Positions 23,963 through 33,996 of a stretch of 64,000 bases of DNA are shown in pieces. Every line of letters starts with the position of its first letter. Position 1 is the first letter of the stretch. Both the position numbers and the translations under genes were made by a program. A model generated the notes under the pieces. It was given only the letters and a program-made list of their open reading frames with translations. It made no database searches and was not told the origin of the DNA. This DNA comes from a virus (lineage: Duplodnaviria; Caudoviricetes), in the IMG/VR virus record IMGVR_UViG_3300031555_004294, positions 128,001 to 192,000 of that record, one strand, 5' to 3'.

Positions 23963-24420
23963 TGTAAGAAGGAGAATATATGGTGGTGCACAAGAAGTGA
24001 CGATTATATTCTTTCTGTATGTTTGCAAGATACAGAGAAGACGAAGGCCAAGTCAACCATTGCAATTCTTACATATCATAGAGATAGGTTGGTCTTACCT
24101 TGGATCCAACCAAACAATCTTACCTAAAAAGCCCTAAAGAACTCGTAACGTGGAATTACTGAGATGTATGATAAAGGCGGCCAAGATGTACCACGAGAGT
24201 TGTTGCTCCAAATAATACAACCACATCAGGCTATGAGTTTGCTCTAGAGAGCAGTAGATTAGTTTATGCTAGACCATCCCATCCTCCTGCCCTAGCCAAC
24301 TAATCGAGAACGGTAAGCTCTTCTTTTCAAAAGAAGTTGAAGAAAACTCAAAATTCATAATGGTTAAAACGTTATGAGACATAAAAAAGAGAAGTGTGGG
24401 ATGGCACTTCTTTTTTTTTT
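23963..24420 (+). ncRNA. candidate large structured non-coding RNA, family not recognised
   Basis: GC-richer than its surroundings, no long ORF, bounded by promoter and terminator, many complementary segments. Confidence 0.6.
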
Positions 24421-24421
24421 T
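24383..24421 (+). terminator. intrinsic terminator with loop TGGGATGG
   Basis: AGAAGTG/CACTTCT stem and long U-tract. Confidence 0.75.
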
Positions 24422-24463
24422 ACAAGATCACATAATTTCAATTCTAAGGAGACAAAAAAGAAA

Positions 24464-26203
24464 ATGGGACAGGCAAACATAGATCAACTTTTTTTGAACT
24501 CAAATATCATAGATGAAGCAGAAACAAAAGAAAAAATTAAGTCTACACTAGCTAAAATAGCGAGAGAAGTTAGTAAGTCTTTAGGTCCATACGGTTCAAC
24601 TACTATCATTGAAGATAGACTTGGTGACCATTATATGACCAAGGATGGGTATACAATCCTTAAGGCTATGAACTACAACTACGATATTTCTCGTACAGTT
24701 CTAGATATAGTTAAGAAGATTTCTAAAGCATTGGTTAGAACTGTCGGTGATGGTTCTACATCTTCTGTAGTCATTGCCAATGAATTATTTGATTCAATTA
24801 CTTCAATCTCAGATAACTTACAGTTAGCTCCTCAAGATATTCTTGAAATTTTCAATGTTTTAGCTGAGAACTTTGAAGCTATGATTTTGAATGAAGCAAC
24901 ACAAATTACAGATGAAAACTTTGATGAAACTATCACAAAGATTGCAACTATTTCTTGTAACAACAATCAAGAATCTGGTAAGCTATTTTGTGATATTTTC
25001 CGAACCATTGGTAAGTATGGTTTTATCAACTTAGAGAATGGTAAGTCTAGTAAGGACTATTTTGAGAAAGTACAGGGTATTGAAGTTCCTAGAGGATGGA
25101 TCAATGCTCGTATGGCAAACCAAAATGACAGAATTTCAACAGAATATGAAAATGCACTTGTGTTCATGATGAATGATATTATGTCTGATGACGAAATTGA
25201 TTTCATTGCAAGTGTTATGGACAATGTATGTATTAAGCAGAATGTTCCTCTTATCATAGTAGCAACTAACTATACTTCTTCTGTTAAATCGTTCTTTGAT
25301 GCAAATCTTCAGAAGAATAAGCATCTTCCTGTAGTTGCTATCGACATTGACGCATCTACTAAAAATGGTAAAGATAGATTTGAAGATTTAGCATTAGCTC
25401 TTGGTTGTCATTATTATGACAAGTACAATGGAATGGAAAATCTTAATGAATTCTCTATCAGAGATTTAGGAAAATGTAAGAGATTTAAGGGAGATGACTT
25501 ACGTTCCACTTTCATTGATGGTGAAGGTTATGTTTCTAACGCAGAAAGACTTCAGGAACACATAAAAAATCTTGAAACTGAATATGAAAGACTTCAGCAT
25601 ATGGATGAAATTCACGATAACCGTGAAAAGGATCTCTTCCAAATTAAGAAACGTATTGCTACTTTAACATCCTCTATGGCAACTCTTTATGTTGGTGGTG
25701 GTTCTGAAATGGAACGTACTACTAGAAAGTTCTTAATGGAAGACGCTGTTTATGCATGTCGTTCTTCTATAGAAAACGGATATGTAGTTGGAGGTAACTT
25801 AATTCTTCCTAAGATTTTGGTAAAACATGAAGATGTTATTGTTGAAAATACTGTAAGAGATGAACGCTTAAAGTATTTGACTAACATCTACGAGAATGAT
25901 GAAGATTTTATGTCAGCAATTATGTATATCGTTGAAAATATACTTTCGGCTTTCAAACAGTCATTTATGACCGTTTTAAGAAATGCACACATTAGTAATG
26001 AAAATGCTGCAAAGATCATCAAAACTTGTATTGATGAAGATAAGATTTACAATGTGAAATTGAGAAGATATGAGAACGATAATGAGACCAATGTAATTAA
26101 CTCGGCTGAAACTGACATAGAAATCATCAAGGCTAGTTTCTCTATCATTGGTTTATTGGCAACTAGCAATCAGTTTATTACTAGCAATCCTGTAAGCAGA
26201 TAA
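24464..26203 (+). CDS. groEL: phage chaperonin, GroEL-like
   Basis: SLGPYG, TKDGYT, VGDGSTS, DRFEDLA, GYVVGG; start moved to MGQAN with AAGGAG RBS. Confidence 0.9.
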   Translation: MGQANIDQLFLNSNIIDEAETKEKIKSTLAKIAREVSKSLGPYGSTTIIEDRLGDHYMTKDGYTILKAMNYNYDISRTVLDIVKKISKALVRTVGDGSTSSVVIANELFDSITSISDNLQLAPQDILEIFNVLAENFEAMILNEATQITDENFDETITKIATISCNNNQESGKLFCDIFRTIGKYGFINLENGKSSKDYFEKVQGIEVPRGWINARMANQNDRISTEYENALVFMMNDIMSDDEIDFIASVMDNVCIKQNVPLIIVATNYTSSVKSFFDANLQKNKHLPVVAIDIDASTKNGKDRFEDLALALGCHYYDKYNGMENLNEFSIRDLGKCKRFKGDDLRSTFIDGEGYVSNAERLQEHIKNLETEYERLQHMDEIHDNREKDLFQIKKRIATLTSSMATLYVGGGSEMERTTRKFLMEDAVYACRSSIENGYVVGGNLILPKILVKHEDVIVENTVRDERLKYLTNIYENDEDFMSAIMYIVENILSAFKQSFMTVLRNAHISNENAAKIIKTCIDEDKIYNVKLRRYENDNETNVINSAETDIEIIKASFSIIGLLATSNQFITSNPVSR

Positions 26204-27608: not shown

Positions 27609-28730
27609 ATGGGAAAAGCAGTACTTATTGTAGGTGGAACATTTGACAGATTTGGTGGTAAGAAGTCTGGTCTCATTGAAAAGATCTATCAGTCAATCGA
27701 TTACAAAAAGTTTGACTATGATATTGTAGCTTGTCGTAATGGCGGCAACGTCGAAGATCTTAATGAAGAACTTGAATTTACAAAGGAATTTGATATTGTA
27801 CTTTGGATGCCGAATGTATCAAATGATGAAGTAAAGATTAGAAATGTGAAGGAAGTGAATCCTAAGACAATTTTGATCTCTTCAAAAAGAAATGACAATA
27901 ACAAGTACAACTTTGCAGAACTTATTTCAAGAGCACTTGAACTCAAATCTAACCTTACAATCGAGTTTAGCAAAGTTGAGGAAAATAATTGTTTCAACAT
28001 GAGAGTTTTTGATCCGCTTGGAAACCAATTCTACAATGGAACTGATGTTGAAACGATGGTTAACAAACTCTTTAAGAGAGCTGGAGAATTAGCAGAATTC
28101 ACAAGAAAACCTACCATTCCAGTTAACAGTAACGATAGAATTCCTGAAGTACCAGATGAAGAAGAATTTTTTGCATTTGCAAGAAATTGTTCTGATATTT
28201 TCCACAATCTAATTAATCCTGCTGCAGGTACTACACGTTTCTTAGGAAATATGAGTTTCCGTTGTCAAAATGGATTTCCTTCTTTCCGTGGAGAAGATGG
28301 ACTTATCTTTGTAAGTCGTAGAAATGTAGATAAGAGACAGATTACAAAAGAATCATTTGTTCCTACTTATCTCGATGAAGATGAAAATGTTAGGTACTAT
28401 GGAGATGCAAAGCCTTCAGTTGATACACCAGTTCAACTCAGACTCTATAAGAAATTCCCTCAGATGAACTATATGATTCATGCTCATTGTTATGCTAATA
28501 CTATTTTACTAACAGAACATCCAGTTCCTTGTGGTGCAATTGAAGAGGTAGATGAAATTGAATCTGTGGTTAAAAATTCAATGGATGCTGAATTTATTGC
28601 AATCAATTTGATTGGTCATGGTTGTATTCTTATGACAAAAGATGTAAAATATTTTACAAGACTCATGAAATATAAAAAGTATAAGGATAATTGTTTTGTA
28701 AAGAGAAATATACCAGAAGTTTTCTTTTAA
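27609..28730 (+). CDS. class II aldolase/adducin-like domain protein
   Basis: GNMSFR, KPSVDT, HAH, GHG. Confidence 0.7.
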   Translation: MGKAVLIVGGTFDRFGGKKSGLIEKIYQSIDYKKFDYDIVACRNGGNVEDLNEELEFTKEFDIVLWMPNVSNDEVKIRNVKEVNPKTILISSKRNDNNKYNFAELISRALELKSNLTIEFSKVEENNCFNMRVFDPLGNQFYNGTDVETMVNKLFKRAGELAEFTRKPTIPVNSNDRIPEVPDEEEFFAFARNCSDIFHNLINPAAGTTRFLGNMSFRCQNGFPSFRGEDGLIFVSRRNVDKRQITKESFVPTYLDEDENVRYYGDAKPSVDTPVQLRLYKKFPQMNYMIHAHCYANTILLTEHPVPCGAIEEVDEIESVVKNSMDAEFIAINLIGHGCILMTKDVKYFTRLMKYKKYKDNCFVKRNIPEVFF

Positions 28731-28745
28731 AAAGGAATTTTGAAA

Positions 28746-29231
28746 ATGAAAAAGCTAACAAAGAAACAAATATTCGATCTTCAACTTAACTATACATGGA
28801 TAACAAAACTGTGTGGTGATGAGTGGTGGAATGATTGGCAGAAATGGAGAGCTGTATCCTATCTTAACTTATCTGATGATTTCATAAGAGAGTTCAAAGA
28901 TAACTTAAGTTGGTTTGAGCTTACAAGAAACCACCAATTTACTCTTGAAACAGTAAGAGAATTCCAAGATTATATACATTGGGATACTCTGTCAAGAATG
29001 AGAATATCGGAAGATATCATAAGAGAATTTCAAGATAAATTGAACTGGCAATTTATTTCTACCTACCAAGATTTATCAGAAAATTTCATAATGGAGTTCA
29101 AAGATAAAGTTCAATGGGATGAGATTTATGTCAATCAAAATTGTTCTAAAGAATTCTGGCAAAAGACAAGTGAATACTGGATGCCATATTTTGAACATCT
29201 TAAACACAGACGAAAGGACGAATTAAGATGA
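28746..29231 (+). CDS. tryptophan-repeat protein
   Basis: LTKKQIFDL; repeats. Confidence 0.85.
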   Translation: MKKLTKKQIFDLQLNYTWITKLCGDEWWNDWQKWRAVSYLNLSDDFIREFKDNLSWFELTRNHQFTLETVREFQDYIHWDTLSRMRISEDIIREFQDKLNWQFISTYQDLSENFIMEFKDKVQWDEIYVNQNCSKEFWQKTSEYWMPYFEHLKHRRKDELR

Positions 29232-29755
29232 AGACTAAACTAACCAAACAACAGATATTTGATTTGCAGTTCAAATATGATATAAAGGCTACACCATCTA
29301 TAATGAAAAAGAAAAATTGGTGGAATCATATAGAATATTGGAGGTGGATATTTGATACTAAAAGTTCTTCTATTCCAGAAGAATTTTTTCGTATGTATAT
29401 TAATGTTATAGATGAATTAGGAGGTTATTATTGGGAGATTATATCACGACAAGCAATATTTTCTGAAGACTTTATAAGAGAATTCCAAGATAAAGTTTAT
29501 TGGGAGGGGGTTTCATCTATTCCAAATTTATCTGAAGACTTTATAAGAGAATTCCAAGATAAAGTTGATTGGTTTGAAATTTCTTCCACTCAAAATTTAT
29601 CTGAAGACTTTATAAGAGAATTCCAAGATAAAGTTTATTGGTGGAAAATTTTTGATTGTCAGACTTTATCAGATGAATTTATTGAAGAGTTTAAAGACAA
29701 ATATATTGACGAGGACGACGAATTTGATGATTTTTTAGAAGATGATGACTACTAA
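29228..29755 (+). CDS. tryptophan-repeat protein
   Basis: LTKQQIFDL; three DNA-identical 36-bp repeat cores, 69-bp period. Confidence 0.85.
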   Translation: MKTKLTKQQIFDLQFKYDIKATPSIMKKKNWWNHIEYWRWIFDTKSSSIPEEFFRMYINVIDELGGYYWEIISRQAIFSEDFIREFQDKVYWEGVSSIPNLSEDFIREFQDKVDWFEISSTQNLSEDFIREFQDKVYWWKIFDCQTLSDEFIEEFKDKYIDEDDEFDDFLEDDDY

Positions 29756-29768
29756 AAGAGGTTTATAG

Positions 29769-30266
29769 ATGAAGACTAAACTAACTAATCAACAGATATT
29801 TGATTTACTTTTCAAGTATAACATACAAGCTACACCAAATATCATGAACAAGAAAAATTGGTGGAATCATAAAGAATACTGGAGTTGGATTATTGATAAC
29901 AAAACAGAACATTTTCCAGATGATTTTGTAGATGAATTTAAAGATGTTCTACTTGAAGTTGCAGATAGTTGGAATAATTGGCCATACATTTCTCATAAAC
30001 GATTGTCTGTACATACTATCAGAGTGTTTAAGGAATATGTTGATTGGAATGTCATTTCTAGCAGTTGTATTTTATCTGAAAATTTTATAAGAGAATTCAA
30101 AGATAGAGTTAACTGGATTTACATTTCTAGATGGCAGAATCTATCAGATGAGTTCATTGAAGAATTTAAGGACAGAATTAACTTTAACGCACTTGAAATT
30201 AATCCGTACTATACAATTAGAACTTTGATTAAAACTAACAAAAAAGAGGAATTAGAATTATGTTGA
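29769..30266 (+). CDS. tryptophan-repeat protein
   Basis: close paralog of 29228. Confidence 0.85.
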   Translation: MKTKLTNQQIFDLLFKYNIQATPNIMNKKNWWNHKEYWSWIIDNKTEHFPDDFVDEFKDVLLEVADSWNNWPYISHKRLSVHTIRVFKEYVDWNVISSSCILSENFIREFKDRVNWIYISRWQNLSDEFIEEFKDRINFNALEINPYYTIRTLIKTNKKEELELC

Positions 30267-31048
30267 CAGAAGTAACTAACAGAAGCTTTGCAAATGGAGT
30301 TGTATATGCACTCAAAACAGAAGATGATTTTCCTATTGAAGTAACAGATACATTTCTTCCATTTTACACCAAAGATGCTATCGGAAAGCATCAAAATGAT
30401 CTCATGGACTACAATTTAGGCTCTCGTAAAGAACGATGGATGATTGGGGTATCCTGTATGTCAGGTTGTCCTGTTCGTTGTAAGTTCTGTGCTACAGGTC
30501 AGCTTAAGAGATATAGAAACCTTACAGCTGAAGAAATTGTAGAACAAGTTGAGTTCATCTTGAACAAGAATCCTGACTTTAATCCTGAAGACTCTCAGGA
30601 GTTTAAGATCAACTATACAAGAATGGGTGAACCCTTCTTGAATATTGAAGCTGTACGTAAAGCTATTGAGATCATCGATAGTAGATACAAGAATGTTCAT
30701 CACTACATTTCTACTATCGGTGTTGAAGACAGTGATTTCTCTTGGATAAAGGATAACATCACCCTTCAAGTTTCACTTCATTCTTTGGATGAAGATAAGA
30801 GAAATTGGTTGATTCCTTTTAAGAAGAAAATGACCATTGAACAACTCGGTAGAATACGTACAGAAAGTAATCTTAAGACAACTCTTAACATGACACTTGT
30901 TGATGAGAATGACTTTGACATTGATAGATTGAAGGCATATTTTGATAAGGACTGCTTCTTTATCAAACTTTCTCCTATCAATGAGAACGAAGTATCTAAT
31001 AGCAACAACATGGGTAAAGGTATTGTTGAAGGAGTAAACTTGATTTAA
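30260..31048 (+). CDS. RlmN/Cfr-like radical SAM enzyme lacking the C-terminal ACGQL segment
   Basis: GCPVRCKFCATG, RNLTAEEIVEQV, MGEPFLN, ISTIG, LQVSLH. Confidence 0.85.
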   Translation: MLTEVTNRSFANGVVYALKTEDDFPIEVTDTFLPFYTKDAIGKHQNDLMDYNLGSRKERWMIGVSCMSGCPVRCKFCATGQLKRYRNLTAEEIVEQVEFILNKNPDFNPEDSQEFKINYTRMGEPFLNIEAVRKAIEIIDSRYKNVHHYISTIGVEDSDFSWIKDNITLQVSLHSLDEDKRNWLIPFKKKMTIEQLGRIRTESNLKTTLNMTLVDENDFDIDRLKAYFDKDCFFIKLSPINENEVSNSNNMGKGIVEGVNLI

Positions 31049-31059
31049 GGAGGAACGGC

Positions 31060-31236
31060 GTGAAGCTTTTACCAATTGAAGAAAGAAGTAAACATAGTTG
31101 TTTCTTTTGTGGAACATCAAAAAGCGTTAAGTATATTGTTGAACTTCCAGAAAATAAACAAAGGGATATACATAGCGTTTATTGCTGTAATCTTTGTGCT
31201 CTTAAAAATGAAGGAGGAAATACAAATGAAAAATGA
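31060..31236 (+). CDS. small zinc-finger protein (58 aa)
   Basis: Not in track. AAGGAGG + GTG; CFFCG...CCNLC. Confidence 0.7.
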   Translation: MKLLPIEERSKHSCFFCGTSKSVKYIVELPENKQRDIHSVYCCNLCALKNEGGNTNEK

Positions 31237-31528
31237 AGATCAGATTATCTTTATCACGAAGATAGTTCAAAGCCAAAGAGCTAAAAATCCAAAAGCAAGT
31301 GAAGAAGTAATTTATGGAAAGGTTAGAACAATTTGCAATAATCTTATCCTTTCTGATGAACTTAGCAAAGATGTCGTTGAAAAGATGTTATCAATGCTCT
31401 TTGAAAGTGTAATCAAGAAAAATGAAACTAAACGAAGACAAGAAGAATCAAGAATAGTACGAACACGAAGTAGTGTATATGATACTGATCCTTGTGGTTA
31501 TTCTGGTGGTGGAAGGAGTCCTTGCTAA
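31226..31528 (+). CDS. hypothetical protein with C-terminal DPCGYSGGGRSPC tail
   Basis: Start moved to ATG 31226 behind AAGGAGG. Confidence 0.7.
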   Translation: MKNEDQIIFITKIVQSQRAKNPKASEEVIYGKVRTICNNLILSDELSKDVVEKMLSMLFESVIKKNETKRRQEESRIVRTRSSVYDTDPCGYSGGGRSPC

Positions 31529-32424
31529 TGAAATATGAACTTTTTGGAAAAGAAATCAATATTAAGGACAACTATTGTTCACTTGATGGCTGTAAAGGTA
31601 GAAAAATTGATGAACCATATGTGAACATGTATGTCGTACTAACCAACACTTGTAATGCAAATTGTGCTTTCTGTTGTAACCCTACTAAAGTTGATAAAGC
31701 TCATTTTGATTTCTACAAGTTTTATTACATTCTTCATGAGATTAGACTTACATACGGTCTTAAGATTAATAAACTTTCCTTTACAGGAGGAGAGCCTACA
31801 CTTAGTGGAATGCTTGAACACTGTGTGAGAGCTGTTAAGAATCTTGATGAAGATATTTTTACAGTTGTCAATACTAATGGAAGTAAATTAGAAACCCTAA
31901 TTCCTATCAGTCAGTATTTTGACAGCATTGCTATTTCTCGTCACTATCATAATGATGATGCGAATCGTAGCATCTTTAACTGTCATAATCATATTGCTAC
32001 AGAAGAAGAAATAAAAACACTTCCTTACAAGAATAAGGTTCATCTTAGCTGTAATCTTCAAAAAGGCTATATGGATAACATAATGAGTGTAAAAACATAT
32101 CTTGAACATGCTGCAGCAATGGGCATCGATGATGTAGGATTTGTTTCTCTAATGCCAGTAAATGATTACTGTAAGGAAAATTTTGTTGACTTTAAAGACA
32201 TCGAATTTGATGCTATAGACAATCTTTTCATTTCTAAAGAGTGGAATAATAAAGACTCTTGCAGATGCAGAAATTATTTGTATCTACCTTCTAATACGAA
32301 AGCAGAAGTCGATGTAGTAAAGGTCTACACAAGATACTATGTTGATCCTAGTTACTGTTCTGGTACTTTAGTATTTGATGGACAGAACTTAAGAATGGGA
32401 TTCAACGGAGAAATTATAATTTAA
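31528..32424 (+). CDS. radical SAM protein
   Basis: CNANCAFC, FTGGEP, TNG; start coupled by TAATG. Confidence 0.85.
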   Translation: MKYELFGKEINIKDNYCSLDGCKGRKIDEPYVNMYVVLTNTCNANCAFCCNPTKVDKAHFDFYKFYYILHEIRLTYGLKINKLSFTGGEPTLSGMLEHCVRAVKNLDEDIFTVVNTNGSKLETLIPISQYFDSIAISRHYHNDDANRSIFNCHNHIATEEEIKTLPYKNKVHLSCNLQKGYMDNIMSVKTYLEHAAAMGIDDVGFVSLMPVNDYCKENFVDFKDIEFDAIDNLFISKEWNNKDSCRCRNYLYLPSNTKAEVDVVKVYTRYYVDPSYCSGTLVFDGQNLRMGFNGEIII

Positions 32425-32442
32425 AAACGGAGGTAAAATAAA

Positions 32443-32577
32443 ATGACTGAACAGATTAAGAAACAGCTTGAAGAAAATGGTTATGACTATGCAGTTGCTA
32501 TTGCAACTAAGGCTGAAATCGAAGCAGGTGCAGCTTGTGGTCAGCTGAGTATCATTGTTGAGAATCAGGAAAAATAA
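32443..32577 (+). CDS. 44-aa peptide equivalent to the RlmN/Cfr C-terminus
   Basis: Not in track. GGAGG RBS; MTEQIKKQLEENGYDYAVAIATKAEIEAGAACGQLSIIVENQEK. Confidence 0.8.
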   Translation: MTEQIKKQLEENGYDYAVAIATKAEIEAGAACGQLSIIVENQEK

Positions 32578-32578
32578 G

Positions 32579-32971
32579 ATGACAGCAGACTATCTTAAAT
32601 TTCCACCTTTATCAAAGCAACAAATTTTTGATTTAGCATTGACTGCTTCTGAATTCTTTAATCACATTTGTTTACCAGAAGATCTTCTTGTTTCTAATTG
32701 GTTAGAAGGTCTCAGAGATGATTACTGGTACGACGGAAAATTTTGGTTTAGAGTAGTTTGTGTTTTCTATTCATGTGATGAAGGAAAAGTTAAACGTTTT
32801 CTTTATCCTCCTGTAGAAAATAGCTGTTTAGAGTTTGAAAAGAAATATAAAACTCAAATAGACTGGGTGATAAAACTTTACAAACTTTGTGTAAGCCCTG
32901 AAGATGAAACTTATGATGAGTTCTACGATACACTTGATATGATAATTCAAGAAAGTATAACCGAAAACTAA
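32579..32971 (+). CDS. hypothetical protein with LSKQQIFDL N-terminal motif
   Basis: start moved to MTADY. Confidence 0.7.
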   Translation: MTADYLKFPPLSKQQIFDLALTASEFFNHICLPEDLLVSNWLEGLRDDYWYDGKFWFRVVCVFYSCDEGKVKRFLYPPVENSCLEFEKKYKTQIDWVIKLYKLCVSPEDETYDEFYDTLDMIIQESITEN

Positions 32972-32976
32972 AATTT

Positions 32977-33022
32977 ATACTCACATATCTCTACAATGGG
33001 ATATGTGAGTATTTTTTTTTTT
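32977..33022 (+). terminator. intrinsic terminator
   Basis: ATACTCACATATC/GATATGTGAGTAT plus U-tract. Confidence 0.8.
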
Positions 33023-33081
33023 GTGTTAAATTGTTATGCCTTCAACACTTTATTATAAAAATTGTGATAAGGAGATTAAAA

Positions 33082-33996
33082 ATGTCAGAAATATTTCTAG
33101 AAACATTACTAGAAACACTGAAAATTTTACCTTTTTTATACGTAACCTATCTTCTGATGCATTTTTTAATAAATGCTCACCTTTTTAAAAATATAGATAA
33201 GATACACAAAACAGAAAAGTTTGGACCATTACTTAGTGGTTTACTTGGTGCAGTTCCTCAATGTGGATTTACTGCAGTAGTAACAGAACTATTTTCTAAT
33301 AGGTTAGTTACAATAGGAACACTTATTGCATTATACCTTTCAACTTCAGATGAAATGCTTGTAATACTCATTTCAAAACAAGTTCCTCTTTTAAAAATTT
33401 TTTTAATTTTATGTCTTAAAGTAGTAATTGGAATTGTAGTTGGATTTATTTGTGACTGGTTAGTCTTTAGAAAACCAAAGCAAATTAAGAAAGAACATGA
33501 ACATTCAGATTGCAATTGTAAACACCATCAGCATGTTGAAAAAGAAGAAGATTGCAAACATTGCAGTTGTTGTACTATTAATGACAAAAATGGAAAACCA
33601 TTACATCCACTTATTGCATCTTTAATACACTCCCTACGTATCTTCATTTATGTATTTATAGTATCTTTCATAGTCCATATGCTAATACATTATATTGGAG
33701 AAGCTACTATGAAGGGATTACTGTTGTCAGTACCTCTACTCAGTTATGTTATATCTGCAATAGTAGGTCTTATACCTAACTGCGCAATTTCAGTAATTAT
33801 TACTGAACTGTGGATAGACGGTATGCTTTCTCTTGGTGGCATGATTGCAGGTTTGTTAACATGCTCAGGTGTGGGATTAGTAATTCTGTTCCACAATAAC
33901 AAGAACTTAAAGGAAAACTTTAAGATTATTGCAATTTTATTAATTACTGGTATTTTTAGTGGAATACTTATAGACTTCATAGCAAGCCTAATATAA
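33082..33996 (+). CDS. putative metal (Mn/As-type) permease with His/Cys-rich loop
   Basis: multiple hydrophobic helices, GAVPQCG and GLIPNC half-repeats, STSDEM; late promoter at 33044-33055. Confidence 0.7.
   Translation: MSEIFLETLLETLKILPFLYVTYLLMHFLINAHLFKNIDKIHKTEKFGPLLSGLLGAVPQCGFTAVVTELFSNRLVTIGTLIALYLSTSDEMLVILISKQVPLLKIFLILCLKVVIGIVVGFICDWLVFRKPKQIKKEHEHSDCNCKHHQHVEKEEDCKHCSCCTINDKNGKPLHPLIASLIHSLRIFIYVFIVSFIVHMLIHYIGEATMKGLLLSVPLLSYVISAIVGLIPNCAISVIITELWIDGMLSLGGMIAGLLTCSGVGLVILFHNNKNLKENFKIIAILLITGIFSGILIDFIASLI

Follow-up and report, generated by a model that had tools for sequence, protein, structure and literature searches.

Can a methylating radical S-adenosylmethionine (SAM) enzyme be divided between two separately encoded chains, one of them a short peptide that bears the methyl-carrier cysteine? 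RlmN and Cfr are the textbook enzymes that methylate via a protein-bound S-methylcysteine and a covalent enzyme-RNA intermediate, and Cfr is a major multidrug resistance determinant. The question is raised by a locus in the 64,000-nucleotide (nt) stretch of DNA analysed here (hereafter the window), which spans bases 128001-192000 of a 299,070-bp virus record, a gut phage rated complete by CheckV. In this locus a 262-amino-acid (aa) open reading frame (ORF) similar to the RlmN core is followed, on the same strand, by a 44-aa ORF that begins 1,394 nt past the core stop codon. We consider it likely that the two products form a heterodimer, a class A radical SAM enzyme of the RlmN/Cfr type with its "genes in pieces". 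The elements of the locus are the following.

30260-31048, plus strand: core subunit, 262 aa, an RlmN/Cfr-like radical SAM partial barrel (TIGR00048, Protein Data Bank (PDB) and fold matches)
30446-30448, plus strand: codon of core Gly63, at the position of the resolving Cys118 of Escherichia coli RlmN (ungapped HMMER alignments to 4PL1 and 6FZ6)
30467-30490, plus strand: CPVRCKFC, the CxxxCxxC motif for the radical SAM [4Fe-4S] cluster (C70, C74 and C77; conserved cysteines)
32429-32433, plus strand: GGAGG ribosome-binding site of the peptide gene, 9 nt before its ATG, as read from the sequence
32443-32577, plus strand: peptide subunit, 44 aa, counterpart of the methyl-carrier Cys355 loop of RlmN

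The original prediction described the 262-aa ORF as an RlmN core that stops short of the C-terminal segment, and comparisons with profiles, solved chains and folds confirmed this. The core matched the NCBIfam RlmN profile TIGR00048 (E 5e-24) over profile positions 101-244 of 355 only, the Cfr profile NF000424 (E 5e-15) and Pfam Radical_SAM (E 1.2e-10); its scores lie below the curated family cut-offs (84.9 bits vs 290 for TIGR00048 and 55.6 vs 530 for NF000424). By sequence it also matched solved RlmN and Cfr chains (RlmN 6FZ6, E 1.5e-13). The AlphaFold model of the core had a predicted local distance difference test (pLDDT) score of 92.5, and its 11 best Foldseek matches in the PDB were all RlmN or Cfr, with E-values from 1.8e-13 to 4.7e-7 and template modelling (TM) scores by query of 0.57-0.69. 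In an alignment of 43 core sequences C70, C74 and C77 were the only invariant cysteines. Both ends of the RlmN chain are missing from the core. The N-terminal helical accessory domain is absent: the alignments with RlmN begin only at about E. coli residue 97-113, and the cluster motif begins at residue 70 vs 125 in E. coli. At the other end the chain terminates after the strand that matches E. coli "CKINLIPWN", and the subsequent helix, strand and Cys loop are absent. The methyl-carrier loop (A/G)(A/G)CGQL, whose ACGQL motif was noted as essential by Kaminska et al. 2010 (PMC2836569), is thus not on the core chain and is supplied in trans only, on the separate 44-aa chain. In some relatives of the core an intein is inserted at the third cluster Cys; Pfam detected intein domains including LAGLIDADG in one of them (L032:3759-5561), and the insertion in the 601-aa protein P0245 was placed at the same site by sequence. 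Conserved active sites are the usual location of inteins.

The 44-aa ORF had been predicted to have a GGAGG ribosome-binding site of its own and an ACGQL tail, and its coordinates, spacing and sequence (..LEENGYDYAVAIATKAEIEAGAACGQLS..) all hold. The peptide consists of a helix at about residues 3-12, a strand at residues 14-21 (YDYAVAIA, or GYDYAVAIA with the preceding Gly) and the loop EIEAGAACGQL, which contains the only cysteine, Cys32 (codon 32536-32538). Its family comprises 541 stand-alone relatives of 24-77 aa, with ten invariant positions (L9, A17, A19, A21, T22, A31, C32, G33, Q34 and L35), and some of the stand-alone peptides are labelled RlmN by JGI's own pipeline. The pairwise alignment of the single peptide with E. 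coli RlmN was weak, as 75 of 2000 shuffles scored as high, and therefore profile methods were needed to assess the homology. When compared by sequence with solved structures, the single peptide, which is too short for such a search, gave no match at E up to 10, and in E. coli RlmN the hidden Markov model (HMM) of the peptide family matched the AACGQL heptad alone. However, hhalign aligned the peptide profile to columns 249-284 of 304 of the profile of 21 contiguous RlmN/Cfr-like proteins (94.8%, E 5.4e-8), and this match covered the helix, the strand and the loop. A chance motif was rejected on the basis of this alignment to contiguous tails. In addition, the peptide HMM matched the C-terminal tails of contiguous relatives of about 300 aa (P0325, E 5e-8; P0318, 7.5e-6; P0302, 3e-4). 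In Vibrio phage D479 a 93-aa ORF (L041:3803-4084) is a tandem duplicate of the peptide module with two AGAACGQM loops, and in P0143 the module is partially duplicated.

The split is not peculiar to the window. A peptide ORF was located downstream of the core on the same strand in all 30 core-seeded phage loci, and the core was upstream of the peptide in 78 of the 79 peptide-seeded viral loci, the sole exception lying at a contig end. The co-occurrence of the peptide gene with truncated cores, which the original prediction had named as a check, is thus nearly complete. After dereplication at 90% core identity 38 lineages were left. The best matches among phage records carry both genes side by side (Kehishuvirus "tikkala", a Bacteroides phage, with a core 66% identical, and Moorella phage MTATph1, 48%). 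In Pectobacterium phage Arno162 (core 35% identical) the peptide gene is about 0.5 kb downstream, and Vibrio phage D479 also has the split pair. The core has about 2,600 homologues. Close homologues of the core are all split alike; contiguous relatives are only distant.

Nevertheless, two ORFs could result from artefact or decay, that is, from a recent disruption by inserted genes, a misassembly, or a gene restored to one product by splicing, frameshifting or readthrough. In the window three genes separate the halves, mobile DNA frequently interrupts phage genes, and the two ORFs of Moorella phage MTATph1 are in the same frame and only 15 nt apart. However, core and peptide are separate linked ORFs in hundreds of sequence clusters and in unrelated phage groups, and their frames and spacings vary among lineages, with a gap of 1.4 kb here. 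An intron family search revealed no intron-like RNA between the halves; rejoining by an intron or intein was rejected. The canonical junction is not needed either, since natural fusions join the module at the N-terminus: in P0248 (315 aa) the peptide module precedes the core, a permuted order, and in P0265 (695 aa) the module (AACGNL) and the core are followed by a YDTDP linker and a further radical SAM domain. In the window neither ORF is disrupted, and purifying selection acts on the peptide ORF (pN, nonsynonymous, 0.17 vs pS, synonymous, 0.79; 27 codons, 35 lineages); a pseudogene was rejected. Several metagenomes of animal faeces contain DNA near-identical to the stretch, and no RNA run containing it was listed. 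Contigs assembled from four of the other faecal runs had zero differences to it and bridged every gene junction. Because these independent contigs give the identical gene layout, misassembly was rejected. The objection that homologues might be contiguous and the locus a recent disruption or misassembly therefore fails, and we regard artefact or decay as extremely improbable and close to refuted.

Do the two chains fit together? A complex model of the core, the cluster, SAM and the peptide was computed in three runs alongside three controls. Its interface score, ipSAE, was 0.83 (0.82-0.84 in the runs) vs 0.00 for the best control, where the ipSAE mark is one reached by 58 of 80 solved complexes and by 2 of 110 mismatched pairs; as one-chain RlmN structures have been solved, likeness to them could yield a pass, and the score denotes compatibility, not binding. 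The runs had at least 94% of contacts in common, with a partner pLDDT of at least 61. In the model, peptide residues 12-20 pair with core residues 233-239, the last strand of the core, and the peptide loop contacts the conserved N-terminal hairpin of the core (residues 8-15, 31 and 33), in which N12, G13, P34 and T37 are conserved. Docking of strand to strand, as predicted here, hints at a stably bound subunit more than at a carrier that exchanges freely. The two-chain enzyme that had been predicted is thus supported both by the split shared among close homologues and by a complex model that passes its controls.

In such an enzyme the core would bind the [4Fe-4S] cluster and SAM. The peptide would complete the fold, with its helix placed by the model on core helix 213-225 and its YDYAVAIA strand on core strand 233-239, and its flexible loop would carry Cys32 towards the active site. 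By analogy with RlmN, a first SAM would donate its methyl group to Cys32 and a second SAM would be cleaved to the 5'-deoxyadenosyl radical. This radical would take a hydrogen atom from the S-methyl group, and the methylene radical so formed would attack an sp2 carbon in the substrate, most probably adenine C2 or C8.

How could the resulting adduct be released? In RlmN C355 is the residue that bears the methyl group and becomes part of the covalent adduct, which C118 is indispensable for resolving (review, PMC9692996), which confirms the roles that had been assigned to the cysteines of the ACGQL and CVSS motifs. The position of the resolving cysteine (C118 in E. coli RlmN, C105 in Cfr) is seven residues before the first cluster Cys. 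The HMMER alignments are ungapped around the cluster motif and set G63 of the window core on E. coli residue 118 (Ala in the C118A crystal form 4PL1). G63 is conserved in at least 90% of the sequences of the 43-sequence core alignment. The nearby C66 (30455-30457) aligns with E. coli Ser121; it is C, T or V in relatives and is not among the conserved columns. The change from CVSSQVGC to GVSCMSGC pointed out in the original prediction is real, but as C66 varies while Gly at the C118 position is conserved, the resolving cysteine is absent rather than moved. Besides the three cluster cysteines of the core and Cys32 of the peptide, the family alignments contain no further conserved Cys.

To place this loss we built a tree of 93 family members by a quick maximum-likelihood search, in which many inner forks have poor support. 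Its groups are as follows.

Canonical RlmN/Cfr, outside the short, phage-rich clade: Cys at position 118, tail fused
Short clade, branch A (support 99; Stenotrophomonas, Salmonella and Vibrio phages): Cys118, tail fused, GGCGQL
Short clade, branch B (support 99), subgroup 1: no Cys at 118, tail fused, GSNCGQ
Short clade, branch B, Gly118 subgroup, including the window: Gly at 118, tail nearly always split

Two smaller clades also fall within the Gly118 subgroup: one (P0315 and P0325) is fused, and the other (P0337, P0347, P0389 and relatives, L047-L049), with the motif IGVSL.SGC and from short contigs, has chains that keep the tail helix and strand and stop before any Cys loop. Contiguous sister clades with the tails GSNCGQ and AACGQA likewise lack C118, so the split does not explain its loss; on this quick tree the loss appears to be older than the split.

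Since C118 is replaced by Gly throughout the clade, adduct release must differ from that in RlmN. One conceivable outcome is that there is no release: the methylene bridge would stay uncleaved and the peptide would remain on the target adenine through a Cys-S-CH2-C2/C8 linkage, making the pair a tagging enzyme in which the separate tail lets the core turn over and the peptide alone is spent. Gly occupies the very site at which a Cys-to-Ala change traps the RlmN-RNA cross-link (PMC9692996), the loss of C118 before the split on the quick tree is an order that suits this outcome, the peptide gene has a strong ribosome-binding site of its own, and some phages have tandem peptide modules (the 93-aa ORF of D479 with its two AACGQM loops, and P0143). 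However, the contiguous sister clades that also lack C118 would then cross-link the whole enzyme at each turnover, the peptide strand is predicted to be integral to the core sheet, as suits a fixed subunit, and the fusions P0248 and P0265 forfeit the supposed advantage. We therefore consider a consumable peptide unlikely; release through another base, or through a thiol in trans, is more likely than a permanent adduct.

Between the two halves and immediately after them lie genes that bear on whether the peptide works with the core alone.

31060-31236, plus strand: 58-aa ORF with two CxxC pairs, zinc-ribbon-like, GTG start after AGGAGG, phage-specific
31226-31528, plus strand: 100-aa protein with a helical N-terminal part and a Gly-rich two-Cys tail ending in a C-terminal Cys (..YDTDPCGYSGGGRSPC)
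31528-32424, plus strand: second radical SAM enzyme, 298 aa, cluster motif CNANCAFC, MoaA-like fold (Pfam, Foldseek)
32579-32971, plus strand: 130-aa ORF, 1 nt past the peptide stop and in the same transcription unit, phage-specific
32977-33022, plus strand: terminator-like hairpin of 15 pairs followed by T10, the first downstream of the core gene on this strand

No terminator-like site was found on the plus strand within 30260-32971, and, judged from the sequence, core through peptide appear to form a single transcription unit. The 58-aa ORF had no homologue in any fetched locus and no match to Pfam/NCBIfam-type families or PHROGs; for the 130-aa ORF there was neither a family match nor a homologue in other loci. 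The stop codon of the 100-aa gene overlaps the start of the second radical SAM gene (TAATG). The 100-aa protein had no match to a Pfam family or PHROGs and no usable one in the ESM Atlas. It has five counterparts in other loci, each between the core and a second radical SAM gene, and all of these proteins (about 100-138 aa) share the tail pattern D-x-D-P-C-[GS]..G..C-end. Only two of the counterparts reached BLAST E <0.001, the likeness lying mainly in position and tail motif. The YDTDP linker of the fusion P0265 resembles the tail of this 100-aa protein.

The second radical SAM enzyme has the Pfam domains Radical_SAM and Fer4_12 and 300 homologues that form a mainly phage-borne family; its nearest Atlas clusters are mostly viral, followed by MoaA-like folds. 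Its model (pLDDT 93) matched MoaA (1TV7/2FB2) best among PDB structures, with E about 3e-9, and then viperins. It contains extra conserved cysteines, of which C17, C245 and C247 are invariant and C175 is conserved in at least 90% of sequences. In PHROGs the two radical SAM enzymes of the locus fall only into unnamed or generic "radical SAM" families, and the peptide had no match there. In L009/10, L011, L016, L022 and L034/36/37 the 100-aa-type gene and then the second radical SAM gene again lie between core and peptide, the pair being located as follows.

L009: 5776-6977
L011: 5775-6980
L022: 5804-6969
L016: 5755-6908
L034: 6675-7984

About a third of the lineages have, like the window, a small Cys-tailed protein gene and a second radical SAM gene between the halves, and in other lineages the alternative content is a 244-263-aa radical SAM gene with a methyltransferase-like protein of about 145 aa. 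The module between the genes probably extends the pathway, and the tail of the 100-aa protein may be the substrate of the MoaA-like enzyme.

Several points weigh against the heterodimeric methylase. The resolving cysteine, which according to reviews is indispensable in RlmN and Cfr (PMC9692996), is missing, and no replacement base was identified among the conserved core residues; catalytic methyl transfer by core and peptide therefore remains an assumption, made by analogy. The absence of the N-terminal domain, with which RlmN holds RNA more firmly, and, suggestive at most, the net acidic charge of the holoenzyme (about +1, or about neutral, for the core and about -5.5 for the peptide) weaken the analogy with an RNA target. 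The genes between the halves leave room for a peptide that serves more than one enzyme. Finally, in locus L035 the peptide follows a 288-aa radical SAM gene, and no core-size gene was called in the 16 kb of that locus.

These last two points lead to another explanation, according to which the peptide mainly serves other radical SAM enzymes, the MoaA-like one included, as their substrate or as a cofactor they share, in the manner of a ribosomally synthesised and post-translationally modified peptide (RiPP). Ancestry, and not a present role with the core, would then account for its resemblance to the RlmN tail. In keeping with this, the peptide gene is always the last, a radical SAM gene directly precedes it in about a third of the lineages, and the enzyme that precedes it in L035 is of another kind than the core. 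However, in 66 of the 79 peptide-seeded loci the peptide is directly beside the core with no second radical SAM gene, and the unit missing from the core is exactly what the peptide supplies. The hhalign match shows homology to an enzyme segment. By Pfam, neither the core nor the second radical SAM enzyme has a SPASM or RRE domain, Radical_SAM and Fer4_12 being the only domains found. As for L035, the gene maps of L035:7118-8132 and L034:1929-8132 indicate that the genes located in L034 between the 288-aa radical SAM gene and the peptide, including the core, are missing; judged by these maps, either a stretch between two radical SAM genes was deleted or the assembly collapsed there. A RiPP-like role is thus very unlikely, and the heterodimeric enzyme remains our preferred reading.

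What might this enzyme modify? Of 42 dereplicated lineages, 11 have NAD-linked genes (NAD, nicotinamide adenine dinucleotide) beside the core-peptide pair. Nine of the 11 (L012, L027, L032, L008, L013, L070, L022, L122 and L137) carry NAMPT, often with NMNAT-Nudix, and the order NMNAT-Nudix, core, peptide, NAMPT was observed in three loci. The NAMPT of L012 (6523-8973, 816 aa) has an insert of about 440 aa between its two Pfam domains, which may be another intein. The remaining NAD-linked loci are L133 and L134; in one NAD-linked lineage CinA and an NrtR-like Nudix protein accompany a PncA-like isochorismatase, and another encodes a WGR-PARP protein. NAD+ salvage genes have been reported to counter NAD-depleting bacterial immunity. 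RtcB is near the pair in three lineages, and one temperate phage has the pair in its early region, close to ERF, NinB and SSB. The contiguous relative in Vibrio phage 166E36-1 follows NAMPT, and that in Stenotrophomonas phage ANB28 sits among tRNA genes. In the window's own phage no NAD genes of these kinds were found. Its nine tRNA genes are about 78 kb away from the split-enzyme locus, and A37, present in eight of the nine, does not discriminate; a tRNA link within this phage was dropped for these reasons. We treat the neighbouring genes as leads, not evidence. Among candidate targets tRNA or rRNA appears the most plausible, at somewhat below an even chance; an adenine nucleotide such as NAD or ADP-ribose is possible, some other substrate less so, and DNA is doubtful.

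There is also a bolder proposal, which we consider rather unlikely: the clade would have made of the RlmN mechanism a stoichiometric tagging or carrier system in which the Cys peptide is a consumable co-substrate and the substrate, instead of rRNA or tRNA, is an adenine nucleotide of NAD/ADP-ribose metabolism or immune signalling. The peptide could become methylene-bridged to the adenine, or could act as a one-carbon shuttle between the core and accessory radical SAM enzymes. If true, this would jointly explain the lack of both the resolving cysteine and the RNA-binding domain, the presence of a MoaA-like partner and the recurrence of NAD-linked neighbours (NAMPT, NMNAT-Nudix, PncA-like and PARP).

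Some further features of the genomes were recorded. The G+C content of the virus record is 31%. Immediately upstream of the core gene, positions 28740-30266 of the window contain three tandem copies of a repeat-built protein family of about 165 aa (repeats of the type ..LSEDFIREFQDKVxW..), and the start of the core gene overlaps the stop of the last copy. Other genomic copies of this family are located, for example, at G000:C1 35125-37187, 154328-157138, 178264-179156 and 283224-284170. Near the locus are also a Cpn60/TCP-1-type chaperonin gene (24374-26203), a gene for a 373-aa protein with a class II aldolase/adducin domain (27609-28730) and one for an ArsP_2-like membrane protein with a Cys/His-rich loop (33031-33996). 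In another locus the NinG gene (L117:4303-5637) has an intein domain by Pfam.

The conserved split is real, and the pair is probably a two-subunit variant of the class A radical SAM methylase, without the resolving cysteine and the RNA-binding domain and with an optional second radical SAM module. Full-text literature searches yielded no description of an RlmN-like enzyme that is split or phage-encoded, and viral members of the RlmN/Cfr family were mentioned only in passing by Kaminska et al. 2010 (PMC2836569). The pair would offer a ready-made system to dissect the RlmN/Cfr mechanism: the carrier loop is a free peptide of 40-odd residues that can be synthesised, labelled and mutated alone. 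The absence of the product-release cysteine and of the RNA-binding domain adds to this mechanistic value and raises the question of how, or whether, the adduct is released. Phages of gut, marine, soil and plant-pathogen hosts commonly carry the system, cultivable isolates among them, and its target may point to a new mode by which phages alter nucleic acids or nucleotides of the host or the virus.

Of the known systems, RlmN (TIGR00048; PDB 3RFA, 4PL1, 5HR7 and 6FZ6), the C2-methyltransferase of 23S rRNA A2503 and tRNA A37, is the best match by sequence and fold. The phage enzyme shares with it the radical SAM partial barrel, CxxxCxxC, the motifs MGEP..N, SLH and R, and the AACGQL loop with the methyl-carrier Cys after a helix and a strand. 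It differs in having this loop on a separate 44-aa product, Gly in place of Cys118, no N-terminal domain and a profile score of only 84.9 bits vs the cut-off of 290. With Cfr (NF000424; PDB 9P0P), the C8-methyltransferase of 23S rRNA A2503, it has the ACGQL motif and, by analogy, class A chemistry in common (profile E 5e-15, fold E 4.7e-7). However, the phage enzyme shows nothing of C8 specificity or antibiotic resistance, and the differences from RlmN apply to Cfr too. The engineered RlmN C118A (PDB 5HR6/5HR7) stays cross-linked to tRNA. As the phage clade naturally has no thiol at that site (Gly vs Ala), a persistent adduct is conceivable; unlike a laboratory mutation of a one-chain enzyme, however, the phage state is ancient, conserved and common to contiguous sister clades, which argues for another release route.

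The contiguous short RlmN-like enzymes of Stenotrophomonas phage ANB28, Salmonella phage Arash, Vibrio phage 166E36-1 and Bacteroides phage Versailles, of about 300 aa and sister groups on the tree, are likewise phage-borne and without the N-terminal domain. In contrast to the split pair their tail is fused (GGGCGQLW or ITCGNA), and unlike the split clade the enzymes of ANB28, Arash and 166E36-1 retain Cys at position 118. The hallmarks of RiPP precursors and their maturases (SPASM/twitch or RRE domains; leader and core regions) were not found here. Another parallel is the ribonucleotide reductase of Aeromonas phage Aeh1, which is split by a homing endonuclease gene and whose products reassemble into an active enzyme. 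As in that case of genes in pieces, a phage enzyme gene is present here as two ORFs with inserted DNA between them. Unlike in Aeh1, the small piece bears the cysteine that, by analogy with RlmN, would be covalently modified in turnover, and the split is ancient and widespread.

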